Assembly: GCA_963765125.1 (NCBI GenBank)
Contig: CAVXUZ010000004.1
Coordinates: 792-64,791 of the forward strand
Direction: 5' to 3'
DNA from: an uncultured candidate division WWE3 bacterium
GTDB taxonomy: Bacteria > Patescibacteriota > WWE3 > UBA101185 > UBA10185
DNA length: 64,000 nt
How positions within the stretch are numbered: the first letter of the stretch is position 1; each line of letters opens with the position of its first letter. Shown one piece after another: positions 3,371 to 18,345 of the stretch. The notes under the pieces are model-generated. The model saw only the letters and a program-made list of their open reading frames with translations. It ran no database searches and was not told the origin of the DNA. Both the position numbers and the translations under genes were made by a program.

Positions 3371-3982
3371 GTGAAAATAATATACAGAGGGGGCTACCAG
3401 ACAGAAAACGCAGATAAATCCCTATTTTATGAATACGCAGACGCCATCAAAAACTACATAAATAAAGGTAAAAGCGTTGTATACGTTACTTTTGCAAAAC
3501 CAGATCACTATTATGACAACAGAATGATTGAATCACTGGGGACTCTACCTAACATTATCGACAACAGCAGCACAAACGCCGCTTGGTCTACATTTGATTT
3601 AATAGTCATGCCCGGCGGCGAGATGGATATTCTCCAAGAAAGTCTAATAAAGTACGGCTTTTCATTAGATAAATTAAAAAATGATGTAATTATTGTTGGT
3701 GATAGTGCTGGCGCATACGTGCTATCAAAATATTATTTTGAAAAAGAACAAAGTGGAGACACTATAAAATATATTTTGGTTGATGGTTTAAATCCAAAAT
3801 CTAATTTGATAACCGTGGGGCACATTGATAATGAAAAACACTGCACGCCTGAAAAATTAACTAAGGCACAGAGAGTCGCCGATGAAGTTGGCGCTCGTTT
3901 GCTATTACTTAAAGAAAATGAATCGATGATGTTTGAAGATGGTGAACAAGTGGAATTTAATATTGAAGATGTTTTGAGTTAG
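3371..3982 (+). CDS. Peptidase S51 (dipeptidase E)-like / class I glutamine amidotransferase-like protein
   Basis: VMPGGEMD...IVGDSAGA motifs typical of S51 Ser-peptidase fold. Confidence 0.5.
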   Translation: MKIIYRGGYQTENADKSLFYEYADAIKNYINKGKSVVYVTFAKPDHYYDNRMIESLGTLPNIIDNSSTNAAWSTFDLIVMPGGEMDILQESLIKYGFSLDKLKNDVIIVGDSAGAYVLSKYYFEKEQSGDTIKYILVDGLNPKSNLITVGHIDNEKHCTPEKLTKAQRVADEVGARLLLLKENESMMFEDGEQVEFNIEDVLS

Positions 3983-4061
3983 TTTAAATCAACCTCACAC
4001 AATTTATACATAAGCAATATATTTGGTATATATTTATATTAGTAATTTATTAAGGAACACT

Positions 4062-4574
4062 ATGAAATCAAAACTATTTATCTTACTTCTCCTAGTTGCT
4101 TCAACCTTTCTCTTAACCGGATGTACATTAAATTCAGCGCAAAATAGTGATGCTGACAGCCAAAATGTTGAAGAAGATGTATCCGTAAATGACACACCAA
4201 AAACGCAAGTAAGTGCTGAGAAAAAGGATGCGGAAATTGAAAATATTTTAGACATAGTAAGCAATACAACTGGATTTACTGGTGCTTCTGCAATGCGATT
4301 AAGAAGAAATGTCGATAGCGTATCTCTTGATGATGAGGGAAAAGGATTTTTAGTGAGAATGGCATCAAGCGATGAAAAACTTACAACGAACGAAGAAATA
4401 ATTAGCGTAGAAATGTCTGGTTTAAATTATGAGGTGAAAAAGTTTGAACCCAAAAGTAATTCTTTAGTAACTAAATTCTATAAATTTACCAATCCTAATG
4501 ATGTAGAATGTACGCTTGAAATAAGAAAAGTTGGAACTACTGGACAAAGCGATCTTTCTTTTGGGTGTTTATAA
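4062..4574 (+). CDS. Lipoprotein (signal peptide + lipobox LLTGC)
   Basis: MKSKLFILLLLVASTFLLTGC; AAGGA 8 nt upstream of ATG at 4062. Confidence 0.6.
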   Translation: MKSKLFILLLLVASTFLLTGCTLNSAQNSDADSQNVEEDVSVNDTPKTQVSAEKKDAEIENILDIVSNTTGFTGASAMRLRRNVDSVSLDDEGKGFLVRMASSDEKLTTNEEIISVEMSGLNYEVKKFEPKSNSLVTKFYKFTNPNDVECTLEIRKVGTTGQSDLSFGCL

Positions 4575-4615
4575 TTTAGTGTTTTAAAAAGTTATTCTGG
4601 ATTCGAGTGTACGAC

Positions 4616-5992
4616 TTACTCCATGTCTTGGTTTGTATCCTCGTCTGTGTCCGTTTCCTCTTGCTCCTCTGCAGTACATTCTGAAGCACCTCTTACAATT
4701 GTACCTGTAACCTCAGTTGGTCCTGAAAAGTGCCCAGTTAGTGGTGGAGTAGTTTTAAGTGTTATGGCATTACCACGTAGTTTCGGGTCATCTTTTTCTA
4801 GTTTAAAACTAAAATGCTCTTTGTCATCTGATAGTACTTTTTCGTGCCAGGGGTCTACCATTACTGTTTTTATATGCTTATAACCATCCCAATTAGAATA
4901 AAGCCCGTCACAGCTATACGCGCGCATTTGTGTAATATCAGCGTAAATATCTAAACCCTGTGTACCTGTTACTGGAATATTTTTATAATGCTGATCGGAA
5001 AACGTAACCGACCAAGCTCCGTCTGTTGTGCACGTTTCGTTATACCAATTTTCTAGTTTCACTTTCTTTTCTGTGATTTGATCGGCGAGTATATCCATAC
5101 CAAGTTTTTGCGATATTGAGGCGTGATACTCTCTTTGCTCTTCATCCCAACGCTCGTGGTCTCTATGCACAATTGCTTTAAACCCATTTTGTATCCACTC
5201 CCATAATTCAACATCGCGATCTCTCCCTAACTTTTGCGCAAGAGCCATAACTTTTAGTGCGTCGTTTACTTTTTGTAAATCTGCCTCACAAAAATTTTGC
5301 GACAGCGTATTTGCAATAAGTGTGTCGGGAGGAGAGCCTATTATTTCATCTTGGGTGGTGCCACAATTTTGATTTAACCAACCGCCCAAACTTATATGCC
5401 CGTTGATAATCATATCGAAGAGACTTTCTAAACCTAGCATACCTGCAAATTGCGCGTGATAAGCCCACTTATGTAAAATGGGGTCGGTGTAAGTATCTGT
5501 CCAAGAATACGCTACGGTTGAAACATAATAAGTGTAACCATTCTTCGCCCACGTCATTAGCTGATCAGATAAATCATCAAGCCCTGTTCTTTGCGCAGAT
5601 TCTGCTGTTTCTATAGCAATTTCGATATCTCCAAGATTTGCCTGACAAATATTTTTGTTTAATACGGCTTGAGCCTGTGATTTAACAGTTTCCTGAGATA
5701 CTGCGAGGTCACGATCTTGCTGTTCTTCAGTGTAGATATCGTTCTGATGTGCCTCTATATACTCCATCATCGCTTTAAGAGCTGCAATTTCAGCATCAAC
5801 ATCTTCATAAATTTCTATACCAAGCTCTTCGTAGTCAAGCGTGCCACTTTCTAATGCTTGTGACGTAGCACCAATATCTGAATTATTTGTTGGTGATGAA
5901 AGGCGATAAACCGCGTAGGCTCCGCCTGCTAAAATTAAAGACCCACCGAGCAAGATAGCCAAGAATAAAAGTGCAATACCTTTTTCTCTCAT
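4616..5992 (-). CDS. Secreted/membrane-anchored hypothetical protein (458 aa, Trp/Cys-rich, acidic C-terminus)
   Basis: Long ORF with N-terminal TM/signal segment. Confidence 0.55.
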   Translation of the reverse strand: MREKGIALLFLAILLGGSLILAGGAYAVYRLSSPTNNSDIGATSQALESGTLDYEELGIEIYEDVDAEIAALKAMMEYIEAHQNDIYTEEQQDRDLAVSQETVKSQAQAVLNKNICQANLGDIEIAIETAESAQRTGLDDLSDQLMTWAKNGYTYYVSTVAYSWTDTYTDPILHKWAYHAQFAGMLGLESLFDMIINGHISLGGWLNQNCGTTQDEIIGSPPDTLIANTLSQNFCEADLQKVNDALKVMALAQKLGRDRDVELWEWIQNGFKAIVHRDHERWDEEQREYHASISQKLGMDILADQITEKKVKLENWYNETCTTDGAWSVTFSDQHYKNIPVTGTQGLDIYADITQMRAYSCDGLYSNWDGYKHIKTVMVDPWHEKVLSDDKEHFSFKLEKDDPKLRGNAITLKTTPPLTGHFSGPTEVTGTIVRGASECTAEEQEETDTDEDTNQDME

Positions 5993-6069: not shown

Positions 6070-6420
6070 TTAGGTTAAATTCAACGCTTCTAAAACATGT
6101 TCAGGGACTTCTTTACCTTTTTCACAAGTGTCATCACAGCCGGCGAAAAAAAGCCTGTGGCAATTTTCACTCTCTGACGACGTAGCGAGCATCGGACCTT
6201 TAAAGGTCTTCCTCATCTCTCTAACTAACGGTTCGGTGTTTACTTGACTACCAGGAACGCAAGCATCCATAACCACTGCACTAATATCAGGATTTTCTCT
6301 AAATTTCTCCGTAGCCTCCTCGACCGAATAAGCAGAAATAATTTCTACCTTATTTTTAAGATACAAAATGTATATACGATGCCAAAAGGGGTCATCATCC
6401 ACAATCAGTACCTTCTTCAT
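6070..6420 (-). CDS. Stand-alone CheY-like response regulator receiver domain protein
   Basis: MKKVLIVDDD... receiver motifs; GGGAG RBS before ATG at 6420; no cognate histidine kinase adjacent. Confidence 0.6.
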   Translation of the reverse strand: MKKVLIVDDDPFWHRIYILYLKNKVEIISAYSVEEATEKFRENPDISAVVMDACVPGSQVNTEPLVREMRKTFKGPMLATSSESENCHRLFFAGCDDTCEKGKEVPEHVLEALNLT

Positions 6421-6584
6421 ATGTTCTCCCTTCACTCTAGTATTATCCTAATCTTTGTGCACATTTTAACATGACTATGGGACGGTGTCTAAGACGCGTC
6501 TTTGGCGCTAAAGGCTTATGGGAAACAGAAAAAGGCGCTTGGACAGATACTAATTAATACAATTAGTAGTATATTATTATTTAT

Positions 6585-7385
6585 ATGGACATAAGTAATG
6601 AACACGTTTACCTAGAAAGGCTGTCGAAACCACTTAAGGAAAAGCTTAAGATTTATAGATTTATTCCCGAAAATGCGCGAAATGTTCTAGATGTTGGATG
6701 CGCCGACGGGGCCGTTACCCAAGCTTTGGCAAACTTATTTCCTAATATAAAGTTTTTAGGAATTGATTTAAACGAGCATTTCATTGAGAAGGCAAAAGCG
6801 GGAGGTAAAAACTTAAAAAATCTTAGTTTCGAAAAAGTTTATCTTAGAGAACTTCTTGCAAGAGAGCAAAAATACGATGCTGTTATCTTTTGTTCGGTTC
6901 TTCATGAGTTCTATACATACGGTGAGGGAATATCATCTGTCCTAAAAGCTTTGGCAGATGCCCATGAACTGTTAAATGAAGGTGGGGACATCATTATAAG
7001 AGATATGATTCTTCATGAGTACACAAAGAAGGCAGATTTTGAGTGCGAGCTAATGTCTTCAACGATCTATGCTAAAAAGGATTTAGTAAAATATTACACA
7101 GACTTTGAAAAGATACACGGTAAATTAGATACTCATTACAAAGTAAATCATTTTTTGCTCAAATACTTTTATACAGAAAATTGGGAAAGAGAGGTTCTAG
7201 AAAATTATTTACCAGTAACCTTTGAACAGTACGAAAAAATATTTGAGCTTTTAGGTATGAATACGCAAGAAAAACAGTCATATTTAATAGAGTATTTAAA
7301 GAATAAGTGGATCGAGGACTTTAACTTTACTTCGGAGAATATATCTTCATATAAATCAACCGGTATTTTGATAGCAAGAAAATAG
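6585..7385 (+). CDS. Class I SAM-dependent methyltransferase
   Basis: VLDVGCADGAVT motif I. Confidence 0.6.
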   Translation: MDISNEHVYLERLSKPLKEKLKIYRFIPENARNVLDVGCADGAVTQALANLFPNIKFLGIDLNEHFIEKAKAGGKNLKNLSFEKVYLRELLAREQKYDAVIFCSVLHEFYTYGEGISSVLKALADAHELLNEGGDIIIRDMILHEYTKKADFECELMSSTIYAKKDLVKYYTDFEKIHGKLDTHYKVNHFLLKYFYTENWEREVLENYLPVTFEQYEKIFELLGMNTQEKQSYLIEYLKNKWIEDFNFTSENISSYKSTGILIARK

Positions 7386-7487
7386 GTTGGGGCTTAAAAC
7401 CTTACATTTCAAGTAATAAGAGAATTTAAACAATATAAAAGCAAATTTTTGACTTATGCTTTAGTGGATTATTTTACGTGTTGCTAA

Positions 7488-8150
7488 TTAAAATATTCTC
7501 AGATCGTGCTCTTTAAACTTATAAAGCTCTGCAGGTCTGTGTGTAACTTCTTCTTGCATTCTTCCTAAACTTTCTAACATCTCCAAAGATTTTATTTTTT
7601 TTCGAAAATTTCTTTTATCGAGCTTCTCCCCTAAAACGATTTCATAAATCTTTTGCATATCTGTAAGTGTAAATTCATGAGGAAGAAGTGAGTAAGCAAT
7701 GTTTGTATATGAAAGTTTATCTTTTAGTCTTTTGTGAGCAACGCTTAATATTATTTTGTGATCAAAAGCCATCTCGGGTAACTTGTCTAGAGGAAACCAT
7801 TTAATGTCTTTATAGAACTCCAATGTTTTAATCTCGATATCTTTTGGTGTATTAATGAGCGCAAAGTATGCGACAGAGACAGATCTTCCTCTTATATCTC
7901 TTTTAGGATCACCAAAAGTGTAGAGCTGTTCTAAGTAAATCCCCTTCAGGCTTGTTTTTGCTCTAAGTACTCTTATTGCTGCTGCATCAAGGCTTTCATC
8001 TACCTTTACTAGCCCACCAGGAATCGCCCACTTTCCCTGATAATTACCCGAATTTATTTGAATAAGAAGAGCAGAAAGTACGCCATCTACGACGCTAAAA
8101 ACAACGGTGTCAACAGCGAGTAGTGGGTTTTTTGGCTCTATATCGGTCAT
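7488..8150 (-). CDS. nrtR: Nudix-related transcriptional regulator NrtR-like (N-terminal Nudix domain + C-terminal winged-helix)
   Basis: Nudix-fold N-terminus and basic helical C-terminus (FTLTDMQKIYEIVLGEKLDKRNFRKKI). Divergent from an operon containing pncA and pncB, the classic NrtR regulon. Confidence 0.55.
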   Translation of the reverse strand: MTDIEPKNPLLAVDTVVFSVVDGVLSALLIQINSGNYQGKWAIPGGLVKVDESLDAAAIRVLRAKTSLKGIYLEQLYTFGDPKRDIRGRSVSVAYFALINTPKDIEIKTLEFYKDIKWFPLDKLPEMAFDHKIILSVAHKRLKDKLSYTNIAYSLLPHEFTLTDMQKIYEIVLGEKLDKRNFRKKIKSLEMLESLGRMQEEVTHRPAELYKFKEHDLRIF

Positions 8151-8205
8151 ATTTGATTTATACCATACCTCTTACTATTTGTAAATAATACACTTAGGCA
8201 TAGTG

Positions 8206-8234
8206 TTGACATTACACCATTATGGTGGTATCTT
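8206..8234 (+). promoter_or_regulatory. Candidate sigma70-like promoter TTGACA-N17-TATCTT for the 8321-13981 operon; nearby inverted repeat GTGTT-N11-AACAC (8239-8259) is a candidate operator
   Basis: Hexamers and inverted repeat seen in the 170-bp divergent intergenic region between nrtR and the operon. Confidence 0.3.
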
Positions 8235-8320
8235 TCGTGTGTTAGTGTATAAACAACACCAACAGAACTTTGACAATTTAGACAACTAAAACAACAAGAT
8301 CAACTTGAAAGGAGAGGCTG

Positions 8321-9061
8321 ATGGAACTAAAAGTTAGAACAGGAATAGTAACTGGACGTGAACATCTTGTTTATGGTATTAACTGCCAAGATTCTCTTTT
8401 TGCCAAAACTTTTGAGCACGAGGGATATACATACCATATAGGAGTTGTGTCTGATGGGTGCGGAGAAGGAGAAAGGAGTGAAACTGGAGCCCACTTGGCT
8501 ACAAGTTTTCTCATATATAAAATGGAGAAACTTGTTCGAGATGGGTATTCAATCAAATTTATTTTGAGAAAACTTTATTTCGAATTACTAAGATTTCTCA
8601 AGAAGATACTGACCGCATACGACCTAAAACACTTGCCGGCAGAAGAAGTGGATGTAATTAAAAACCATTTTCTTTTTACAGTTATCGGTTTTATAATCGG
8701 ACCCGATGACACAGTAATATTTGCTGTAGGTGATGGAGTCGTGTTGATAAATGACTTCCTAGATGTCAGAGATCAAAAAAACACTCCTACATATCCTACC
8801 TATCACTTAGTTTCGTCAAAATATCTGAAAAGTGATCGGACATACATTCCAAAAGAATTTGACGTGTACGACGTGAAAACAGAAAATATGCAAAAGCTGG
8901 CTGTAGGAACCGACTCGTGGCAATACGAGCTCGACTCCCTGTTCTTGCTTTTTAATGAAGAGCAAAAAACAACACCTCAGCGCCTAATGAACGTTTTATC
9001 TCAAAAAGAAAAACGCTTCAAAGATGATGCAGCCATAATCACGGTAACAAAAACCGAATAA
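8321..9061 (+). CDS. PP2C-family (PPM) Ser/Thr protein phosphatase
   Basis: VVSDGCGEG and AVGDGVV metal-binding motifs, C-terminal DDAAIITV; strong RBS GGAGAGG. Confidence 0.6.
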   Translation: MELKVRTGIVTGREHLVYGINCQDSLFAKTFEHEGYTYHIGVVSDGCGEGERSETGAHLATSFLIYKMEKLVRDGYSIKFILRKLYFELLRFLKKILTAYDLKHLPAEEVDVIKNHFLFTVIGFIIGPDDTVIFAVGDGVVLINDFLDVRDQKNTPTYPTYHLVSSKYLKSDRTYIPKEFDVYDVKTENMQKLAVGTDSWQYELDSLFLLFNEEQKTTPQRLMNVLSQKEKRFKDDAAIITVTKTE

Positions 9062-9072
9062 AGGAGGCTCAG

Positions 9073-10962
9073 ATGAAAGTATTTGTCGGAGGTCACCTCA
9101 TCAATATGAGTAGCTTAGACGTAATAGGTCCAGGCGGTGAGGGTCTTGTGGTCAAAGCCAAAATCAACGGAAATAAAACTGTTGCACTTAAGGTTTACCA
9201 TGAGAAGTTGCAAACAATAGCACGCGCAAGAAAACTTAAAGCCTTCTTTGCGCAAAAATGGACTTTACCGACAAACAGGATTGCGGTACCAATCGAACCG
9301 GCTTACAACGAAGATAAATCATTAATCATAGGTTTGATAATGCCCTATCTCGGAACCGGCTTCGACGACATTGCACAACTTTCCAATAAAAATATACGAC
9401 TAAGTTATGGCATAAATACCAAAAACGTAGCTCAAATATTTTTAGATGGCCTCGGAACTCTTGAGCAGATCCATTCTAATGGACTAGTGGTTGGTGATCT
9501 TAGCGATCGCAACGTCCTATTCCGAGGAACGGAGATGCTATGGATCGATGTTGACTCCTGGCAGTTTGGTAATTTTCCATGTCCCGTAGCTACAGAGGAA
9601 TACGTTGACCCCAATCTTTACGGGGTTGATCTTCCAAATGCTCCGGCGTTTAAACCTGAAAATGACTGGTATTCCTTCGCTGTCTTATTTTTCAGAAGCC
9701 TCTTAATGGTTCATCCATACGGAGGCGTCCATAAAACAGTAAAAGAATTAAAACGAAGAGCGAAGAGTAGAATCACGGTTTTTGACAAAGACGTGAAATA
9801 CCCAAAGATCGCTTTTTCACCAGACATTTTATCAGACGATTTGGCTCAGGAATTCGACAAGATATTCAGAACTGGCGTAAGGGAAACTTTCCCAAAAAGC
9901 CTAGTCCAAAATTATCTTAATGACCTGACTGAATGTTCAAACTGTCATTCGTGGTACCCACGAAATAGAAAAGGTTGTCCTGTTTGTAACAAACGCACTG
10001 TAGTGATTATCGCAAGAAAAGTTATTGCTAATAAGGGTGTTAGGTCTTTCGAGTTTTTTAAAACCTCAGGCGACATCGTTTACACAAAAGTTAGTAATAA
10101 CAAAATCTTTGTGGTAACTCATGAAAATGGAAAAGCTAAGTTACATACAATCGACCAAAACGGTAACGTTTCAGAAAAACATCTTTCAGATACTTCCGAA
10201 GGTGCCCGTTACACTATGACCGAAGAAATTCTGTCTGTAAATTACGGACACTCACAAGAAATTATCCTGCACGATGTTACATCAAAAAGCGTGAGGCAAA
10301 TAAAGCAAACCGTTACGGAACTTTATGAACCAAACCGTAGGGCAGTCTTTCAAGCAACACAAAATAAAGTCCTTCGCATGATCGGAGGAAATATTCTATC
10401 TATAGAGAAAGGAGGAATGGGAATAATTGAACGATCAATCAGAACTGGTGTTCCTAACCAAACATGGTTTTCCGCAAACGACAGTTACAACGGAATGCAG
10501 CTTTTTGGCTTAATCCAAATACTGCACGAAAAAAGATTCTGGTACCACCTAGATGGGCAGAACTTTGAACCCAGTATTCCAAACTTAGAAATAGACGAGG
10601 TTCTGCTAGACATTTCTGTAAAGTTCTCACATGGAGAAGTATTACTAAGAAGGAAGTCACAGCAAAACGGAGTCGACTTTTTAAGACAAGAAATTGTGAA
10701 CGACAACGGTGAGGTAACTTACTCATCAAGAATTAGGTATGGTGATTATCCGGTACAAGGTATGCACGGGCAGATTTACTCAAACGGTATACTGCTTCAT
10801 GCTACAGACGACGGGATAGTTCAAGAAAAAGTTACTAGCCAAGAGTTCAAGACCTTCAAGCAAACTATGCCTTTTGTTGGAGAAGGAGACATCCTTCACA
10901 AATTTAACAAGGGCATCGTCGTAGTAGATTCAAACTCAATAACATATCTTGAATTAAGATAA
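9073..10962 (+). CDS. Ser/Thr protein kinase-like protein with zinc-ribbon and large C-terminal domain of unknown function
   Basis: Gly-loop GPGGEG, VALK lysine, catalytic loop GDLSDRNVLF, DVDSWQFG, DWYSFAVLF; CSNCHSW...CPVCNK zinc ribbon; RBS AAGGAGG. Confidence 0.65.
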   Translation: MKVFVGGHLINMSSLDVIGPGGEGLVVKAKINGNKTVALKVYHEKLQTIARARKLKAFFAQKWTLPTNRIAVPIEPAYNEDKSLIIGLIMPYLGTGFDDIAQLSNKNIRLSYGINTKNVAQIFLDGLGTLEQIHSNGLVVGDLSDRNVLFRGTEMLWIDVDSWQFGNFPCPVATEEYVDPNLYGVDLPNAPAFKPENDWYSFAVLFFRSLLMVHPYGGVHKTVKELKRRAKSRITVFDKDVKYPKIAFSPDILSDDLAQEFDKIFRTGVRETFPKSLVQNYLNDLTECSNCHSWYPRNRKGCPVCNKRTVVIIARKVIANKGVRSFEFFKTSGDIVYTKVSNNKIFVVTHENGKAKLHTIDQNGNVSEKHLSDTSEGARYTMTEEILSVNYGHSQEIILHDVTSKSVRQIKQTVTELYEPNRRAVFQATQNKVLRMIGGNILSIEKGGMGIIERSIRTGVPNQTWFSANDSYNGMQLFGLIQILHEKRFWYHLDGQNFEPSIPNLEIDEVLLDISVKFSHGEVLLRRKSQQNGVDFLRQEIVNDNGEVTYSSRIRYGDYPVQGMHGQIYSNGILLHATDDGIVQEKVTSQEFKTFKQTMPFVGEGDILHKFNKGIVVVDSNSITYLELR

Positions 10963-10981
10963 CAAAAAAAGGAGAAATAAA

Positions 10982-11914
10982 ATGAACACAAAAAATAGTT
11001 TTCTATCGCTCTACAATCCTGACGACATCTACAAAGACTACACACCACGAATCCAGGAATTTATGGAACTGGGTGTTAAAGCCGGTTTGCAATCTTCTCA
11101 CAAAGACAAGGTTCGCGGTGCACTAGTCATCATCGACATGCAAAACGACTTTGTCAGACCCAACGGCGCTTTGGCTGTACCCAACGCAGAAGATGACGTG
11201 AAACGCCTGGTGGAATTTATTTACACCAACGCAGAATCAATCACTGCCATCTACTCAACGTTAGACTCTCACTACCCTATGCAGATCTTTTACAGCGAAT
11301 GGTGGGAAAATCCTGCAACAGGTGAACATCCTGCTAGCTTTACAGTCATCACAGCTACCGACATCAAAAACGGTACCTGGCGCGCCCGCATTGATCCCGT
11401 TTGGTCACACAAGTATGTGGCTGAACTAGGTAAAAAGGGAAAGAAAGCCTTGATGATCTGGCCAAAGCACACAATGGTAGGAACTTGGGGCCATGCGATC
11501 ATTCCGGCACTGGCAGAGGCAATTGCCTGGCACAGCGCAGCAAGAATGACACAACCCACTTTTCTGACCAAAGGTGACGTCCCACAGGTTGAGCGGTACG
11601 GAGCCTTCGCACCCGAAGTGGAATATCCCAATAACCCCCGTGGTGGAACGGATACTTTCATACTAGATGCAATTGGGCGCTACGACCGAACCTGGTGGGC
11701 AGGAGAAGCAGAAACACACTGTGTAATTGAAAGCCAAATTCAGGCTGTCGATTACTTTAAAAATCAGCCAGACGTGCTAAAAAGCATGTTCTTTCTGATG
11801 GATTGCACCAGCCCCATCCTTCATCCAGCGATAGACTTTGTCGCAATTGCTCGAGCTGAGCAAAAGCGTATGGAGTCACTCGGGGTGCAGCTGGTAAAAA
11901 GCACAGAAATATAG
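10982..11914 (+). CDS. pncA: Nicotinamidase / isochorismatase-family hydrolase (PncA-like)
   Basis: ALVIIDMQNDF..., LDSHYP, KHTMVGTWGH, ETHCVIES catalytic Cys context; RBS AAAGGAG. Confidence 0.6.
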   Translation: MNTKNSFLSLYNPDDIYKDYTPRIQEFMELGVKAGLQSSHKDKVRGALVIIDMQNDFVRPNGALAVPNAEDDVKRLVEFIYTNAESITAIYSTLDSHYPMQIFYSEWWENPATGEHPASFTVITATDIKNGTWRARIDPVWSHKYVAELGKKGKKALMIWPKHTMVGTWGHAIIPALAEAIAWHSAARMTQPTFLTKGDVPQVERYGAFAPEVEYPNNPRGGTDTFILDAIGRYDRTWWAGEAETHCVIESQIQAVDYFKNQPDVLKSMFFLMDCTSPILHPAIDFVAIARAEQKRMESLGVQLVKSTEI

Positions 11915-11925
11915 AGGAGATTAAC

Positions 11926-12720
11926 ATGAACACAAAAAAATCTTCAACCCAAGTTACTGTCAATCCGCAGGCTTCGTTCAATTCGGCTCTTGCCGATGGG
12001 AGCATTAGCAGAGTATCGCATGAAATTCTGGTAGAAAACCTCAATACGCTAACCACGTTGGGTGCGCAGGGTGTTTCTCCAGATGATTTAGCCGAAGATC
12101 GTGTAACGATTTTTGTGCCAGTCCTGGATGCATCTGGCTCCCGCTTCAACGAAAGTGATTTAATGCGCTCCGAATACAACAAAATGTTGGACGCTCTAAA
12201 ACTGAGCAAGGCAAGCCACACAATCCTGGTGTCTTCCTGGATGTTCAACACATCGACTGCATTACTTCATGGTTTTGTGTCACTCGATGACGCAGAACGT
12301 TTGGATGTAAATAATTACAACCCAGACGGTGGAACAGCAATGTTTGACGCGATGCTAAATGCCCTGACGAGCACCACAGCATACGCAAAATCACTTCTTG
12401 ACCAAGGTTACCGAGTGAAAGTCGTAATCGTTCTGATAACAGACGGTGAAGATAACTCAAGCGACCCTTCAACCTTGGGCAATGTTAAGAAAGTGATTGC
12501 AGATCTTCTGACTCAGGAAATCTATGTATTTTCCATGATCGCTTTTGGCACCGGGTACGCTCAATCAGCGGCCAGGAACATGGGTATTCCTGATCTAAAT
12601 GTTATCGAATTCGGCGGAACCGACAGGGATATCCGTAACGCTTTTAGTTTAGTGAGCAGCTCAGTGATTCGCCAAAGTCAAACACAAATCGGCGGTTCAT
12701 CAAGCTTCTTCGCACCGTAA
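11926..12720 (+). CDS. von Willebrand factor A (vWA) domain protein with MIDAS motif
   Basis: DASGS ... DGGT ... TDGEDN MIDAS residues; RBS GAGGAG. Confidence 0.65.
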   Translation: MNTKKSSTQVTVNPQASFNSALADGSISRVSHEILVENLNTLTTLGAQGVSPDDLAEDRVTIFVPVLDASGSRFNESDLMRSEYNKMLDALKLSKASHTILVSSWMFNTSTALLHGFVSLDDAERLDVNNYNPDGGTAMFDAMLNALTSTTAYAKSLLDQGYRVKVVIVLITDGEDNSSDPSTLGNVKKVIADLLTQEIYVFSMIAFGTGYAQSAARNMGIPDLNVIEFGGTDRDIRNAFSLVSSSVIRQSQTQIGGSSSFFAP

Positions 12721-12799
12721 ACTTGAAAGCGTAATTATAGGGCAGCATACAAAAACAAATGTCTGCTGCCCTTCCTTATTTAAAGAAAAGGAGGTTTAA

Positions 12800-13981
12800 A
12801 TGCAACCCATTATTACGTCTCTGTTAACAAACGACTTCTATAAATTCACCATGCAACAATTGATTCTCAGAAATTTTTCTGATGTAAACGTAAAATACAA
12901 ATTTTACAACAGGGGCAACACAGAATTTCCAGAAGGGTTTGCAAATAAACTTCAGAAACATGTGAATGCTCTTGAAAAACTTAAATTTCATCCTGCAGAG
13001 GTAAACTTTTTAAGAATGAAAGCACCATTTCTCAAAGAAAGTTATTTGAAATGGTTAGAAATTTTTCAACCAAATGCAAGCCAAGTTTTCATAAAGCAAA
13101 GTGGAGGTAGTTTAGACATAGAGGTAGAAGGCCCATGGTGTCAATCAATCTATTGGGAAATCCCTCTCTTGTCGATTATTTCAGAACTATACTTTTTGGA
13201 AACTAATCAACACGCGGATGACAATTATGTTGAACGGGCATCGCAAAAATTTGCACTTCTTAAAGCAAACGGTGTTTCGTTTGCTGACTTTGGTCTCAGA
13301 AGACGCTTCTCTGCAACCGTACATGAAGCAGTTTTACTCGAGATGATCAAACATACAAGAGGTGAAAATGACTTAGGAGGATTTGTAGGAACAAGTAACG
13401 TAAATCTTGCTTACAAACATAACACAAGACCAATCGGAACTATGGCGCACGAACTTCCTATGGTCATCGCAGGGCTTTACGGCTTTAGGTCAGCTAATGA
13501 AATCTTGCTTAAATCCTGGCAAGATGAGTTCAACGGTGACCTCGGAATCGCTCTTACGGATACCTTTACAACAAAGGTATTTCTACAAAGCTTTAATAGA
13601 GAGCACGCAAACACTTTCGACGGTGTGCGCCAAGATTCAGGTTCACCAGAAGAATTTTCTGGTTTGATAATAGAACACTACAAAAGTTTAGGTATTGACC
13701 CGATGACCAAAACAATAATCTTTAGTGACAACCTAAACGCCAGCAGGGCCATTGAAATCGCAAAGTACTGTGAGGGTAAAATAAAATGCTCATTTGGCAT
13801 TGGAACTAACTTCACAAACGATGTAGGAGTCAAACCTCTAAATATCGTAATTAAAGCTGACTGCGCAGGAAGAAAAGGGCAACCGATGCTTCCCACAGTT
13901 AAGCTATCAGACTCAATAGGAAAAATAACGGGAGATACTGCAACAGCTAATAAGGCCAAGTATCTTCTGGGAATCTCCTAA
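12800..13981 (+). CDS. pncB: Nicotinate phosphoribosyltransferase
   Basis: Collinear similarity to E. coli PncB (LTNDFYKFTMQQ, SGPW, EIPLLSIISE, GLRRRFS, VGTSN, GTMAHE, GIALTDTF, RQDSGSP, SFGIGT, KPLNIVIK, KLSDS.GK); RBS AAAGGAGG. Confidence 0.85.
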   Translation: MQPIITSLLTNDFYKFTMQQLILRNFSDVNVKYKFYNRGNTEFPEGFANKLQKHVNALEKLKFHPAEVNFLRMKAPFLKESYLKWLEIFQPNASQVFIKQSGGSLDIEVEGPWCQSIYWEIPLLSIISELYFLETNQHADDNYVERASQKFALLKANGVSFADFGLRRRFSATVHEAVLLEMIKHTRGENDLGGFVGTSNVNLAYKHNTRPIGTMAHELPMVIAGLYGFRSANEILLKSWQDEFNGDLGIALTDTFTTKVFLQSFNREHANTFDGVRQDSGSPEEFSGLIIEHYKSLGIDPMTKTIIFSDNLNASRAIEIAKYCEGKIKCSFGIGTNFTNDVGVKPLNIVIKADCAGRKGQPMLPTVKLSDSIGKITGDTATANKAKYLLGIS

Positions 13982-13991
13982 AACAATTTAA

Positions 13992-14029
13992 AGGCAGAAT
14001 AAATCTAAATGATTGTTCTGCCTTTTTTT
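13992..14029 (+). terminator. Rho-independent terminator after pncB (AGGCAGAA...TTCTGCCT + TTTTTTT)
   Basis: Seen in sequence. Confidence 0.6.
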
Positions 14030-14063
14030 AACATGGACGTTTTGTAAAAGCTTGTGATAAAAA

Positions 14064-14078
14064 ATCACCAAACCAAAA
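14064..14078 (+). repeat. 15-nt motif ATCACCAAACCAAAA (copy 4)
   Basis: Exact match, intergenic, just downstream of pncB terminator. Confidence 0.8.
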
Positions 14079-14387
14079 ATACCTACACTCTGTAAAAACA
14101 AACCTCAATCCATAAAAGCTTCTACTTAAAAGCAAAAATTCCCTAATTTTCATTTACAAACAAAATCCTATAGTATATAATCTTTTTTATGCATGAACGA
14201 GATAACAACTATCTTAATAAATTATCTAATTACCCAGTTACTAGGGCAGATTTTGTTGCCAAAAATTGGGACTTGATGGTTGTTGCTTATTCACCTGTAA
14301 AAACTTTTTAACTTTAAACAGCAATCACCAACTCCCAAGGTTGGTAGGTTGCACATTCAAAACATAATTAAATAAGGAGTTTATAAA

Positions 14388-15194
14388 ATGAACGCTAGTA
14401 ATGTAGTACAAACGTTTTATCGTCGTGCTCGGCAATATGATTTTGATTATGCCGATTATGGAGTGGACATTCCTTTTAATGTTCAACTCGCTCAAGAGCT
14501 TGCTAAAAACGGTAAGGTACTCGAGTTTGCGTGCGGAACAGGCAGAATAACTTTTGCCATCGCAAAAATGGGTGTAAATATTACCGGTGTTGATATTTCT
14601 CCGGCGATGCTCGACGTAGCTCGTGAAAAGTTGGTCTCGTTGAAAGCAGGCGGTGAAATTACACACGATGTTCTTTTGTTTGAAGGTGATATGCGAAACT
14701 TTGATGCGGGAAAAGGACTTTACGATTATGTCTTTATTCCTTTCACTAGTTTTTTGCATCTCACTGATCGACAGTCTCAGCAAGATGCGTTAACCAATGC
14801 CTACGAACATTTAGTTCCTGGTGGTTACTTTTTGGCAGATATCTTTATGCCGGATGTAGTACACCTCGCGCGAGATCTCGGACCCAATTGGTTGACTCAA
14901 GAAAAGACAGTCGAACGTGACGGCAGAATGCTAGTGCGTTTGTCAGCTGTGCGATACAACCAAGCATCACAGATTATTTTTGGCAAATGGTATTACCAGC
15001 TCTACGAAACCACTGGCGACGGTCGACAGATAGACTCGTACTGTGTTCCTATGGAACTTCGTGTGATTTTTCCTGCTGAATGGGAACTGTTGTTAGAACG
15101 AGCAGGCTTTAAAATTGAGCAAAAGTGGGGTGGGTTTAATCGTGAACCTTACGATGCCTCATCCAAACGTATGCTCTTTCTGTGTAAGAAATAG
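14388..15194 (+). CDS. Class I SAM-dependent methyltransferase
   Basis: VLEFACGTGRITFAIAKMG motif I; RBS AAGGAG. Confidence 0.6.
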   Translation: MNASNVVQTFYRRARQYDFDYADYGVDIPFNVQLAQELAKNGKVLEFACGTGRITFAIAKMGVNITGVDISPAMLDVAREKLVSLKAGGEITHDVLLFEGDMRNFDAGKGLYDYVFIPFTSFLHLTDRQSQQDALTNAYEHLVPGGYFLADIFMPDVVHLARDLGPNWLTQEKTVERDGRMLVRLSAVRYNQASQIIFGKWYYQLYETTGDGRQIDSYCVPMELRVIFPAEWELLLERAGFKIEQKWGGFNREPYDASSKRMLFLCKK

Positions 15195-17499: not shown

Positions 17500-18345
17500 A
17501 TGAACTTAAACGAATCCAGCTCGACAGAAAATACTGAAAATCATTATAATGAGACCGTACCACAACGTGCTTTAGAGATGGAAAAGATTGAAAAAGTGTT
17601 AGACGCTGGCAAAAGTGTTTTACTCTCAGGTGAAGACGGAAGTGGAAAAACCACGTTATTATCAGCACTCACTACAAAACTAAAAAACGAAGGTACTCAA
17701 ATTGAGTTTATTAATCATTTAGATTATCGAAGTCCTCAAGAACTTGGACGTAAACTTGAAACATTTTTAGAACCGGCAGTCAGGTCGAATGCGAAACCTA
17801 ACGAACTACCTATTTTACTGATCGACAGCATAGATTACGCGTGGGAGAAAACTGACGATGAAAGATCAAATCTTAGGCTAAGACTTGCGTCTGTCATCAA
17901 TTCAGAAAAGTTTAGATGCGTGATGACAATGCACTCCGAAGAACCAAAAGGTAAAAACGTTGATTACATTCTTAAAAAACAATTTCTACCTCAAATATCT
18001 GGTGATGGTATTGAAAAAATAGAATTGGCACCCTACTACACCCAAGAATCTGCAGAGGATTTTCTCAAAGCTAAAGGTTTACCAGAAAAAATGATAAATG
18101 ACCTAACCAAAGAAAACACCATCGGAAGGTCTCATGTACATCTTACAAATTATATTTTTACTGAAGAAAATGCGGGTTTGCTGGACTTGCTAAAAAATTA
18201 CGCAAACACATACGAGGCTGCTGTTTTAGAAAACGATACGACAAAAGCAGAATTTATTAATCAAAGATACGAGAAAAATATGAAAGAACTTTTGAAAATC
18301 GTTTACTTGAAAAAAGCTGAGAGCGACGAGAATTTTACTCATTAA
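17500..18345 (+). CDS. P-loop ATPase (AAA-like), function unknown
   Basis: Walker A GEDGSGKTT, Walker B LLIDSID. Confidence 0.55.
   Translation: MNLNESSSTENTENHYNETVPQRALEMEKIEKVLDAGKSVLLSGEDGSGKTTLLSALTTKLKNEGTQIEFINHLDYRSPQELGRKLETFLEPAVRSNAKPNELPILLIDSIDYAWEKTDDERSNLRLRLASVINSEKFRCVMTMHSEEPKGKNVDYILKKQFLPQISGDGIEKIELAPYYTQESAEDFLKAKGLPEKMINDLTKENTIGRSHVHLTNYIFTEENAGLLDLLKNYANTYEAAVLENDTTKAEFINQRYEKNMKELLKIVYLKKAESDENFTH

Follow-up and report, generated by a model that had tools for sequence, protein, structure and literature searches.

A mobile PP2C, kinase, nicotinamidase and vWA cassette recurs under NrtR-type operators and here adjoins pncB

Why would a PP2C phosphatase, a Ser/Thr kinase and a vWA protein be encoded among enzymes of NAD salvage? 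The question is raised by one locus in a 64-kb stretch of DNA (the window), in which the original prediction saw a signalling triad interleaved in an NAD-salvage operon, with the nicotinamidase and pncB as the salvage pair. The window sequence bore out the layout that had been described: the six open reading frames, their Shine–Dalgarno sites, the short gaps and the terminator were all found (Table 1). The five plus-strand genes are separated by 11, 19, 11 and 79 nt, and each carries AAGGAG, AAGGAGG or GAGGAG 6–8 nt 5′ of its ATG; a divergent spacer of 170 nt lies between the nrtR-like gene and the PP2C gene. The terminator consists of a hairpin (13990–14025; ΔG −17.5 kcal/mol, z −5.7) with a U7 run (14023–14029) at its end and beyond, and the second stable hairpin, between the vWA gene and pncB (ΔG −19.2 kcal/mol, z −4.5), is possibly an attenuator. 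Methyltransferases, a GNAT and a peroxiredoxin make up the neighbourhood in the window, and this copy of the cassette is chromosomal.

Table 1 Features of the locus, in window coordinates
Feature	Coordinates	Strand	Basis
nrtR-like repressor gene	7488..8150	-	Pfam domains
NrtR box 1, AGTGTTGACATTACACC	8202..8218	.	Motif scan, alignment to related loci
Sigma-70-type promoter, TTGACA / 17-nt spacer / TATCTT, TG before −10	8206..8234	+	Promoter scan
NrtR box 2, AGTGTATAAACAACACC	8244..8260	.	Motif scan, alignment to related loci
Third conserved leader block, GAACTTTGACAAT	8265..8277	+	Alignment, six CPR promoter regions
PP2C-family Ser/Thr phosphatase	8321..9061	+	PP2C_2 7e-14
Ser/Thr kinase, zinc ribbon and beta-propeller	9073..10962	+	Pkinase 1.9e-8
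Long (310 aa) PncA-type nicotinamidase	10982..11914	+	Isochorismatase-like, Pfam 21 bits
vWA protein, complete MIDAS site	11926..12720	+	VWA 22.8 bits
Stable hairpin, then UUCCUUAUUU, vWA–pncB gap	12739..12772	+	Folding energy
pncB, nicotinate phosphoribosyltransferase	12800..13981	+	NCBIfam NF003704, Pfam NAPRTase
Intrinsic terminator	13990..14029	+	Hairpin and U7 tail

The arrangement is not a product of chance: the same four genes, encoding the PP2C, the Ser/Thr kinase, the long PncA-type nicotinamidase and the vWA/MIDAS protein, form a core unit that is found together in 57 of the 71 genome loci with adequate flanks. These 57 loci span CPR, Chloroflexota, Myxococcota and Riflebacteria with a patchy distribution across phyla, and show two gene orders, PP2C–kinase–nicotinamidase–vWA (n = 45) and nicotinamidase–vWA–PP2C–kinase (n = 12); at a further nine genome loci the PP2C–kinase pair has no nicotinamidase–vWA pair within 8 kb of it. 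Ranked by similarity, the four proteins correlate with one another across 79 loci (Spearman 0.64–0.93), which indicates co-inheritance, and CPR genomes preserve synteny at the locus even where kinase identity has dropped to 53%. The cassette is also mobile: distinct full copies number 56 in GTDB representative genomes and 54 in IMG/VR viral contigs, and three complete huge-phage genomes carry it as well; at one locus, L192, an SPP1-type portal gene lies 2 kb downstream. Phage-borne copies had not been foreseen. The closest relatives (L001, L009 and L003) and distant phyla alike have the PP2C, kinase and vWA genes in this place, and the proposed functional unit withstood this and every other refutation set out for it beforehand. 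The idea of a triad inserted into a salvage operon needs recasting: the nicotinamidase belongs to the core of the cassette and is not an interrupted housekeeping gene.

The other half of the proposed salvage pair is less constant. Curated thresholds classify the product of the last gene as PncB (NCBIfam NF003704, 443.8 bits against a cutoff of 379; TIGR01514, 389 against 270; Pfam NAPRTase, 2.3e-53, and NAPRTase_N, 5.7e-33), and both enzymes are indeed encoded in the window operon, but pncB lies near only 8 of the 56 full cassettes in genomes and is an optional, lineage-specific addition. It lies downstream of the cassette in CPR, whereas Myxococcota carry a long-type pncB directly upstream, viral contig L172 has PncB–NadE upstream and huge phage LR756500.1 has NadE nearby. 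PncB and NadE have thus joined the cassette independently in several lineages.

The nicotinamidase itself falls below the curated cutoffs (Pfam Isochorismatase PF00857, 21 bits against 27; NCBIfam PncA, PRK11609, 29 against 174), and compared with short PncA it is extended at the N terminus by about 45 residues and has insertions. We assign it to a divergent long PncA-type subfamily, for which metagenomes yield at least 565 relatives. The triad D52, K197 and C247 and the metal site D95, H97 and H163 are invariant in 195 distinct homologues and align with the corresponding residues of Pnc1 and of PncA from P. horikoshii; the family likewise shows no variation in the metal ligands specific to nicotinamidases or in the WPxH motif. 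Nicotinamidases come first among its structural neighbours, the fold being isochorismatase-like and of nicotinamidase type, and nicotinamide is the probable substrate. The gene often stands alone, at 50 metagenome loci with adequate upstream sequence (58 nicotinamidase-only loci overall), and no residues separate these copies from cassette-linked ones, which together indicate that the enzyme does not strictly need the triad. Exact NrtR boxes precede 14 of the 50 stand-alone genes and all seven nicotinamidase–vWA pairs; the rest of these loci has none.

Catalytic residues of all four cassette proteins are invariant or nearly so, and on this evidence all four partners look competent. In the PP2C, the metal-binding aspartates D24, D45, D138, D198 and D235/236 are conserved to this degree across 122 homologues. 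The kinase combines a Hanks-type domain (residues 1 to about 285, with the Pkinase match confined to 15–234), a Cys4 zinc ribbon (288–305) and a WD40-like beta-propeller (about 317–629) that is essentially confined to this kinase family. The vWA protein scores just under the Pfam VWA cutoff (1.2e-4; cutoff 23.8 bits), its family profile matches the vWA domains of PDB 4cn8 (1.8e-6) and its MIDAS motif, DASGS...T...D, is intact. All 115 sequences compared share D68, S72, T137, D173, S244 and S246, and the serine-rich C-terminal segment has the invariant serines S244, S246 and S251.

A DNA-binding domain, as predicted, is found in the divergently encoded regulator, which has a Nudix domain (NUDIX, residues 17–132, 1.3e-10) and an NrtR winged-helix domain (NrtR_WHD, residues 153–212, 2.4e-26) and also matches AraR_C (1.3e-12). 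Its domain content places it in the NrtR family, but with 170 bits against the 400-bit equivalog cutoff of NCBIfam NtrR (NF050029) it does not rank among the curated equivalogs. Its Nudix box has the sequence G-x5-E-x7-RVLRAKTSL, which lacks the glutamates of REUxEE, and the Nudix-like domain looks catalytically dead.

Published NrtR operators are 21-bp palindromes whose core is GT-N7-AC (PMC2330246). Comparison with related loci set the window form of the operator as AGTGT-N7-ACAC(C/T); AGTGT-N7-ACAC has two matches in the window against 0.28 expected, boxes 1 and 2. The GTGTT-N11-AACAC palindrome proposed at 8239–8259 does exist, but the conserved operator follows another register, at 8202–8218 and 8244–8260, with box 2 overlapping that palindrome. 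Box 1 aligns with its counterparts in L001, L009 and L010 and overlaps the −35 hexamer of a promoter that scores 10 of 12 matches, TTGACA lying within the box in L001 and L009 as well, and box 2 sits just 3′ of the −10. The two candidate boxes thus bracket the predicted promoter in the classic repressor arrangement, and the GAACTTTGACAAT block is conserved across six aligned CPR promoter regions. In 1.25 Mb of fetched bacterial loci, AGTGT-N7-ACACT, which like the window box fits the published core, occurs 97 times against 0.85 expected; 82 of the 97 are found no more than 300 nt upstream of a PP2C, PncA-like, kinase or nrtR gene, and most of the others fall inside over-called 5′ ends of these genes. 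Boxes of this type precede both PP2C–kinase and nicotinamidase–vWA pairs across phyla, including loci with PP2C–kinase only, and nrtR adjoins 12 distinct cassettes. Viral cassette copies have no NrtR boxes, and an ADP-ribose trigger is therefore not universal.

We somewhat favour the explanation that the locus is a conserved mobile four-gene module, here extended by pncB and placed under NrtR, that provides ADP-ribose-induced, phospho-switched salvage. Cleavage of NAD+ would let ADP-ribose and nicotinamide build up, and ADP-ribose would free NrtR from the two promoter-bracketing operators, so that the whole operon is transcribed; both the operator binding and the ADP-ribose response of the window regulator are carried over from published work on other NrtRs. 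The nicotinamidase would then convert nicotinamide to nicotinate, and PncB would convert nicotinate to NaMN, which would enter the deamidated (Preiss–Handler) route back to NAD+. The kinase and PP2C may together form a reversible phospho-switch whose target is the vWA protein, with the invariant serines of its C-terminal segment as predicted phospho-acceptors, or alternatively the nicotinamidase itself. Such a switch would gate engagement of the nicotinamidase by the MIDAS adaptor, and the beta-propeller may be a sensor or a docking surface. Against this explanation stand the frequent stand-alone nicotinamidases, the nine genome loci with an isolated PP2C–kinase pair, the viral copies lacking NrtR boxes and the enzyme and vWA scores under curated Pfam and NCBIfam cutoffs.

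Several of the same observations could be read differently. The module might be mainly a phage–host conflict device, a TerY-P-type triad whose output is nicotinamide removal, and not a homeostatic regulator. In phages it would then reconstitute NAD+ or counter defence by way of the deamidated pathway, with PncB and NadE as helpers; in bacteria, ADP-ribose released by NADase defences would trigger the module through NrtR, and the module could then speed recovery. Alternatively, it might starve phage NARP1 and NARP2 enzymes of nicotinamide and ease product inhibition of SIR2/TIR NADases. The viral and huge-phage cassettes, the portal gene at L192, the patchy distribution and two gene orders, and a weak match of the viral kinase to TCAD9, a conflict-system domain, all speak for this, as do the triad architecture shared with TerY-P and the fact that phage NAD+ reconstitution is an established class; TerY-P-like modules are also reported as stand-alone anti-phage systems (PMC11090510). 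Yet PADLOC returned no meaningful matches, the window vWA matched TerY only at 0.013 over a partial stretch of 56 residues and none of 19 vWA homologues matched TerY at 0.01. The window neighbourhood is not a defence island, CPR genomes keep the locus in synteny, the window proteins are far from the viral copies (kinase identity 33% or less) and the stability with which Chloroflexota copies belong to the NrtR regulon suggests that the module is resident and metabolic. We regard a conflict device as unlikely, though a serious contender.

The 310-aa enzyme could instead be a cysteine amidohydrolase that acts on another substrate, such as a different pyridine/pyrazine carboxamide or an ADP-ribose-derived amide, in which case the module would control that metabolite and be linked to NAD indirectly; this would suit the sub-threshold scores, extension and insertions of the enzyme. 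The invariant metal ligands and WPxH motif, the structural ranking, the NrtR boxes at stand-alone copies and nicotinamidase–vWA pairs, and the repeated adjacency to PncB, which consumes the nicotinamidase product nicotinate, make it improbable. Mere juxtaposition, with the triad unrelated to NAD salvage, could appeal to the loci in which the two gene pairs are split, but the four genes are found together in phages and in four or more phyla, both pairs carry one common operator motif and the propeller is essentially specific to this kinase family; the comparative data effectively refute it.

Beyond the favoured salvage module, we tentatively propose, with less confidence, that the cassette is a phosphorylation-gated NAD+ switch moving between phages and bacteria, with the propeller sensing the signal and the vWA serines as the switch, and that it serves phages as an NAD+-reconstitution or counter-defence route and bacteria as an NrtR-controlled salvage burst. 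If so, the version in gut siphovirus-like and huge phages, in some cases joined by PncB and NadE, would be a fourth such route, acting by nicotinamide deamidation, and CPR, Chloroflexota and Myxococcota cells would answer NAD+ cleavage with a kinase-controlled burst under the ADP-ribose sensor NrtR. We found no description of such a phosphorylation-controlled nicotinamidase cassette in the searchable literature; the fixed inheritance of kinase, PP2C, vWA protein and nicotinamidase points to an undescribed, phosphorylation-controlled management of the cellular NAD+ supply.

How does the cassette compare with known systems? Its enzyme shares only 17–23% identity with the long nicotinamidases yeast Pnc1 (2h0r), A. 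baumannii PncA (2wt9) and the Drosophila nicotinamidase (9u8m); it represents a separate family and has an N-terminal extension and C-terminal elements of its own. The phage systems NARP1–3 (bioRxiv 10.1101/2024.02.11.579819; PMC13464706) resemble the homologous cassettes in being phage-borne and in handling an NAD+ cleavage product, which for the cassette would be nicotinamide; some cassette copies lie beside phage PncB and NadE genes. NARP1 comprises Adps and Namat, NARP2 Nampt and Nmnat, and NARP3 PnuC and an NadR-like enzyme, with no kinase, phosphatase or vWA module, and none of their defining enzyme domains was found in the cassette. Published NrtR regulons with pncA–pncB (Rodionov et al. 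2008, PMC2330246) share the Nudix-like and winged-helix regulator divergent from salvage genes, and the palindromic operator overlapping or 3′ of the promoter; the regulon table and text consulted there list no kinase, PP2C or vWA partner. Here, in contrast, the operator type precedes PP2C–kinase as well as nicotinamidase–vWA, and the nicotinamidase is the long form under the PncA cutoffs. The TerY-P triad (Anantharaman, Iyer and Aravind 2012, as summarised in PMC11090510 and PMC4978471) comprises a vWA protein with an intact MIDAS, a PP2C and a kinase with a C-terminal zinc ribbon, and the window genes have this set in one operon; the triad and the anti-phage system of Gao et al. 2020 (via the same two sources) are also mobile and occur in varied contexts, like the cassette. 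PADLOC gave no TerY-P match for the window PP2C or kinase, and no ter genes, DNA-processing or restriction modules were seen beside the cassette, its neighbours being NAD genes, methyltransferases and housekeeping genes. Described TerY-P kinases end in a zinc ribbon alone or an OB fold, whereas the window kinase adds a beta-propeller, and the partner of the triad here is a putatively NrtR-controlled nicotinamidase in place of ter genes or DNA-processing, McrBC or CoCoNuT modules.

All six open reading frames of the operon and its divergent regulator were confirmed exactly as originally predicted, and profile searches of the encoded proteins agreed with the proposed families, although the PncA-like enzyme and the vWA protein scored below cutoff (see table). 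The regulator has a DNA-binding domain, and its Nudix box reads G-x5-E-x7-RVLRAKTSL, so that it lacks the catalytic Nudix glutamates. Ligand-sensing, non-hydrolytic NrtRs commonly show such a degenerate signature. The successive operon genes are separated by 11, 19, 11 and 79 nt, each preceded by an AAGGAG-type ribosome-binding site. Folding upheld the clean terminator proposed for the operon end (hairpin of −17.5 kcal/mol, z −5.7, with a U7 tail), which a consensus terminator scanner missed because its loop is long. Scanned with Rfam, positions 7000–14500 gave no match to a riboswitch or any other RNA family.

Genes of the NAD-salvage operon and its regulator, with the support for each family call
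Product	Position	Strand	Support
NrtR-type regulator	7488–8150	−	NrtR_WHD 2.4e-26; NUDIX 1.3e-10
PP2C phosphatase	8321–9061	+	Profile search 7e-14
Ser/Thr kinase	9073–10962	+	Kinase domain profile spans residues 15–234 only
PncA-like enzyme	10982–11914	+	Weak Isochorismatase match, 21 bits (cutoff 27)
vWA protein	11926–12720	+	22.8 bits (cutoff 23.8); full MIDAS motif
PncB	12800–13981	+	Clear match, 444 bits (cutoff 379)

The genes flanking the operon encode methyltransferases, a GNAT protein, a receiver domain and a peroxiredoxin, and the neighbourhood is not a defence island. One of them, a SAM-dependent methyltransferase gene convergent with nrtR (6585–7385), occupies the same place in the related contig L001 (5621–6421), a local synteny confined to close relatives. 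A small P-loop protein with weak STAND/NACHT/AAA matches is encoded 3.5 kb downstream of the operon (17500–18345), with no evident link to it. Relative to its flanks (GC 0.35–0.37), the operon region (8001–14000) is richer in GC (0.40–0.43) and has an AT skew that is strongly positive (+0.10 to +0.18), which may reflect horizontal origin or just strong coding constraint.

Scanning one genome per species with a kinase alignment identified 247 relatives. The 80 loci retrieved come from WWE3, Microgenomates, Collierbacteria, Kuenenbacteria, many Chloroflexota, Myxococcota and Riflebacteria; the same scan of genome contigs with a single kinase sequence as query gave no match. When six-frame ORFs of these loci were searched by jackhmmer with the window proteins, PP2C, kinase, PncA-like enzyme and vWA protein were all found in 57 loci, 45 of them in the window order and 12 in a permuted order. 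Fourteen loci were incomplete though their flanks were adequate, and 15 were cut by contig ends. Nine of the incomplete loci carry PP2C and kinase only; no alternative partner gene was found beside these nine, whose neighbours are unrelated (a two-component system, PhyH, YidC, Jag, RNase Y and a glycosyltransferase). The same six-gene layout recurs in L001 (53% kinase identity), and three loci at 40–48% kinase identity (L003, L005 and L006) have PP2C–kinase–PncA-like–vWA together with nrtR and without pncB; in L007 the order is PncA-like–vWA–PP2C–kinase. In another genome locus, L008, an IS605-family TnpB gene (OrfB_IS605, Cas12f-like; 9913–11238) sits between the kinase and nicotinamidase genes of an otherwise intact set.

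A pncB gene adjoins only 8 of 56 distinct genome cassettes, as an orthologue of the window pncB in the nearest relatives and as a long-type gene in a few more distant lineages. Because it accompanies a minority, the conserved unit is the four-gene cassette, with pncB an add-on. The original prediction of a signalling triad interleaved between pncA and pncB therefore holds for the conservation of the co-located genes and fails on their grouping, the nicotinamidase being a core member. A second stable hairpin in the vWA–pncB gap of the window (12739–12772; −19.2 kcal/mol, z −4.5), followed by UUCCUUAUUU, fits this picture and could act as an attenuator or partial terminator between the four-gene core and pncB. 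Across 79 loci, the similarity ranks of the four cassette proteins correlate (Spearman 0.64–0.93).

Upstream regions of nrtR-linked loci share the palindrome TTAGTGT-N7-ACACTAA, in agreement with the consensus published for NrtR, a palindrome of 21 bp whose core is GT-N7-AC (PMC2330246). Within the window, AGTGT-N7-ACAC has two matches only: one at 8202–8218, overlapping the −35 element of a predicted TTGACA-17-TATCTT promoter, and one at 8244–8260, after the predicted −10. The operator first proposed, GTGTT-N11-AACAC, overlaps the second box out of register and was rejected in favour of AGTGT-N7-ACAC(T/C), derived from comparison of related loci. There are 97 exact copies of AGTGT-N7-ACACT in the 1.25 Mb of bacterial loci fetched, compared with 0.85 in shuffles; 82 of these copies lie at most 300 nt upstream of PP2C (43), nicotinamidase (33), kinase (5) or nrtR (1), and most of the remainder fall inside over-called 5′ ends of those same genes. 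In Chloroflexota, where nrtR is not adjacent, PP2C–kinase and PncA–vWA form sub-operons each with its own boxes, and an NrtR-type box also precedes most PP2C–kinase-only loci. The signalling genes themselves therefore appear, on this comparative evidence, to be members of the NrtR regulon. At 8265–8277, some 45 nt before the PP2C start codon, is a third conserved block, G(A/T)AC(T/G)TTGACAAT, which is common to the promoter regions of six CPR loci and looks like the left half of the first NrtR box.

Other NAD genes have joined the cassette independently in several places. Downstream pncB is found in CPR, whereas in the Myxococcota loci L082, L085 and L088 a long-type pncB lies directly upstream of PP2C; one locus (L172) reads PncB–NadE–PP2C–kinase–PncA–vWA, and NadE is close by in L026, L072, L080, L083, L173–L175 and L233. 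At least one additional NAD link is present in 41 of the 56 distinct full genome cassettes. The long nicotinamidase gene occurs twice near a single cassette in L007 (5292–6209 and 14131–15054), L028 (4572–5438 and 8212–9126) and L227 (6992–7822 and 12469–13389). A metagenome scan with the nicotinamidase alignment gave at least 565 relatives. Among the 80 best loci, which were analysed, stand-alone copies are the majority, with 12 PncA–vWA pairs and 10 full cassettes. Exact NrtR boxes precede 14 of 50 stand-alone copies and all seven pairs with upstream sequence, and none was found elsewhere in the PncA-only and PncA–vWA loci. We found no residues separating cassette-linked from stand-alone nicotinamidases.

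The vWA family profile matches the vWA domains of PDB 4cn8 (1.8e-6). Across 115 sequences the MIDAS residues D68, S72, T137 and D173 are invariant, with Ser or Thr at position 70; S244 and S246 of the C-terminal segment (VSxSVIRxSQ) are likewise invariant, and S251 is nearly so. As the MIDAS state of integrin I-domains is under the control of a C-terminal helix, these serines are attractive as a switch, and we offer a phospho-switch here as a hypothesis by analogy. Of 87 kinase matches, nearly all are full-length homologues. With the C-terminal beta-propeller of the kinase as the sole query, HMMER searched 1.84 billion representatives exhaustively and recovered only 164 clusters. Nearly all of these are proteins of 600–650 aa in which the domain has the same location, which makes the propeller specific to this kinase family. 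In a Microgenomates MAG (L012, 7230–9881), the PP2C and kinase families are both matched by a single ORF, an apparent PP2C–kinase fusion that would support joint action of the two.

The cassette, conserved and mobile, is also carried by phages. A scan of viral contigs identified 91 relatives of the nicotinamidase; about 68 of the 80 loci fetched have the full cassette, mostly in the order PncA–vWA–PP2C–kinase, and no NrtR boxes were found in them. A large group of 40–85 kb viral contigs matches MT837596.1, a human faeces record, at 97–99%, and in a representative (L192) an SPP1-type portal gene (8e-52) lies 2 kb downstream of the cassette. All four genes are present in the complete huge-phage genomes LR756500.1, LR745208.1 and LR756511.1. 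In LR756500.1, NadE is 3.3 kb upstream; NadE and a sigma-70-like factor are encoded shortly before the cassette, at 3867–4727 and 6198–7037 of the fetched locus, separated by a 366-aa ORF with no family match. Directly upstream of the cassette in two different phage-contig groups is a Ro60/TROVE-like gene (DUF2828 + DUF7788 + VWA_2; phrog_850; L192 5421–6872 and L176 4597–6093), a second vWA protein beside the module. Weak matches to Pfam TCAD9 (PF19974), a kinase-like domain of 'ternary' conflict systems, in L192 (9260–10990) and in protein P0082 may hint at kinship with conflict-system kinases. The window cassette is chromosomal and closest to CPR versions, with 54% kinase identity compared with at most 33% for viral copies.

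Together, these comparisons show that a nicotinamidase-type enzyme, a MIDAS adaptor, and a kinase with a private propeller and a PP2C, both predicted to be active, are co-inherited as judged from sequence, that bacterial cassettes are preceded by NrtR-type operators, and that the four genes are repeatedly joined to PncB and NadE. ADP-ribose, the co-product of NAD+ cleavage, relieves repression by NrtR (PMC2330246). Cleavage of NAD+ would thus derepress the operon, the enzyme and PncB would bring nicotinamide back to NaMN, and the kinase/PP2C pair could control the nicotinamide step by switching either the vWA protein or the enzyme. The main alternative, favoured by the phage distribution and the TerY-P-like architecture, is a primary role in phage–host conflict: counter-defence in phages or, in hosts, a response to NADase immunity. 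As the sole role, however, conflict sits poorly with stable membership of the NrtR regulon, with a window neighbourhood that is not defence-like and with PADLOC, which gave no convincing defence-system match for the six window proteins or the vWA family.

The cassette is a defined, widely conserved candidate for kinase control of NAD+ salvage, with one enzyme, adaptor, kinase and phosphatase each and all active sites intact, and it is present in phages as well as in bacterial lineages that have received little study. It adds signalling proteins to the NrtR regulon and points to a way in which streamlined CPR bacteria may handle nicotinamide recycling. NAD+ depletion and reconstitution are now seen as a central bacteria–phage battleground.

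In the literature searched we found no kinase-based post-translational control of bacterial NAD+ salvage, and no description of the nicotinamidase–triad union, its NrtR control or its phage presence; because coverage was incomplete, including for the original TerY-P descriptions, an earlier mention is possible. A PncA-like gene of phage G is mentioned as of unknown function, with no cassette described. The phage NAD+ reconstitution pathway NARP3 was rejected as a prior description, as it comprises PnuC and a NadR-like enzyme and is unrelated. Parts of the cassette match known kinds, namely NrtR–pncAB regulons, phage NAD+ pathways and the TerY-P triad, which papers citing its original description give as vWA, PP2C and a kinase with a zinc ribbon; for such a triad, whose mechanism remains hypothetical, the cassette offers a concrete candidate function.
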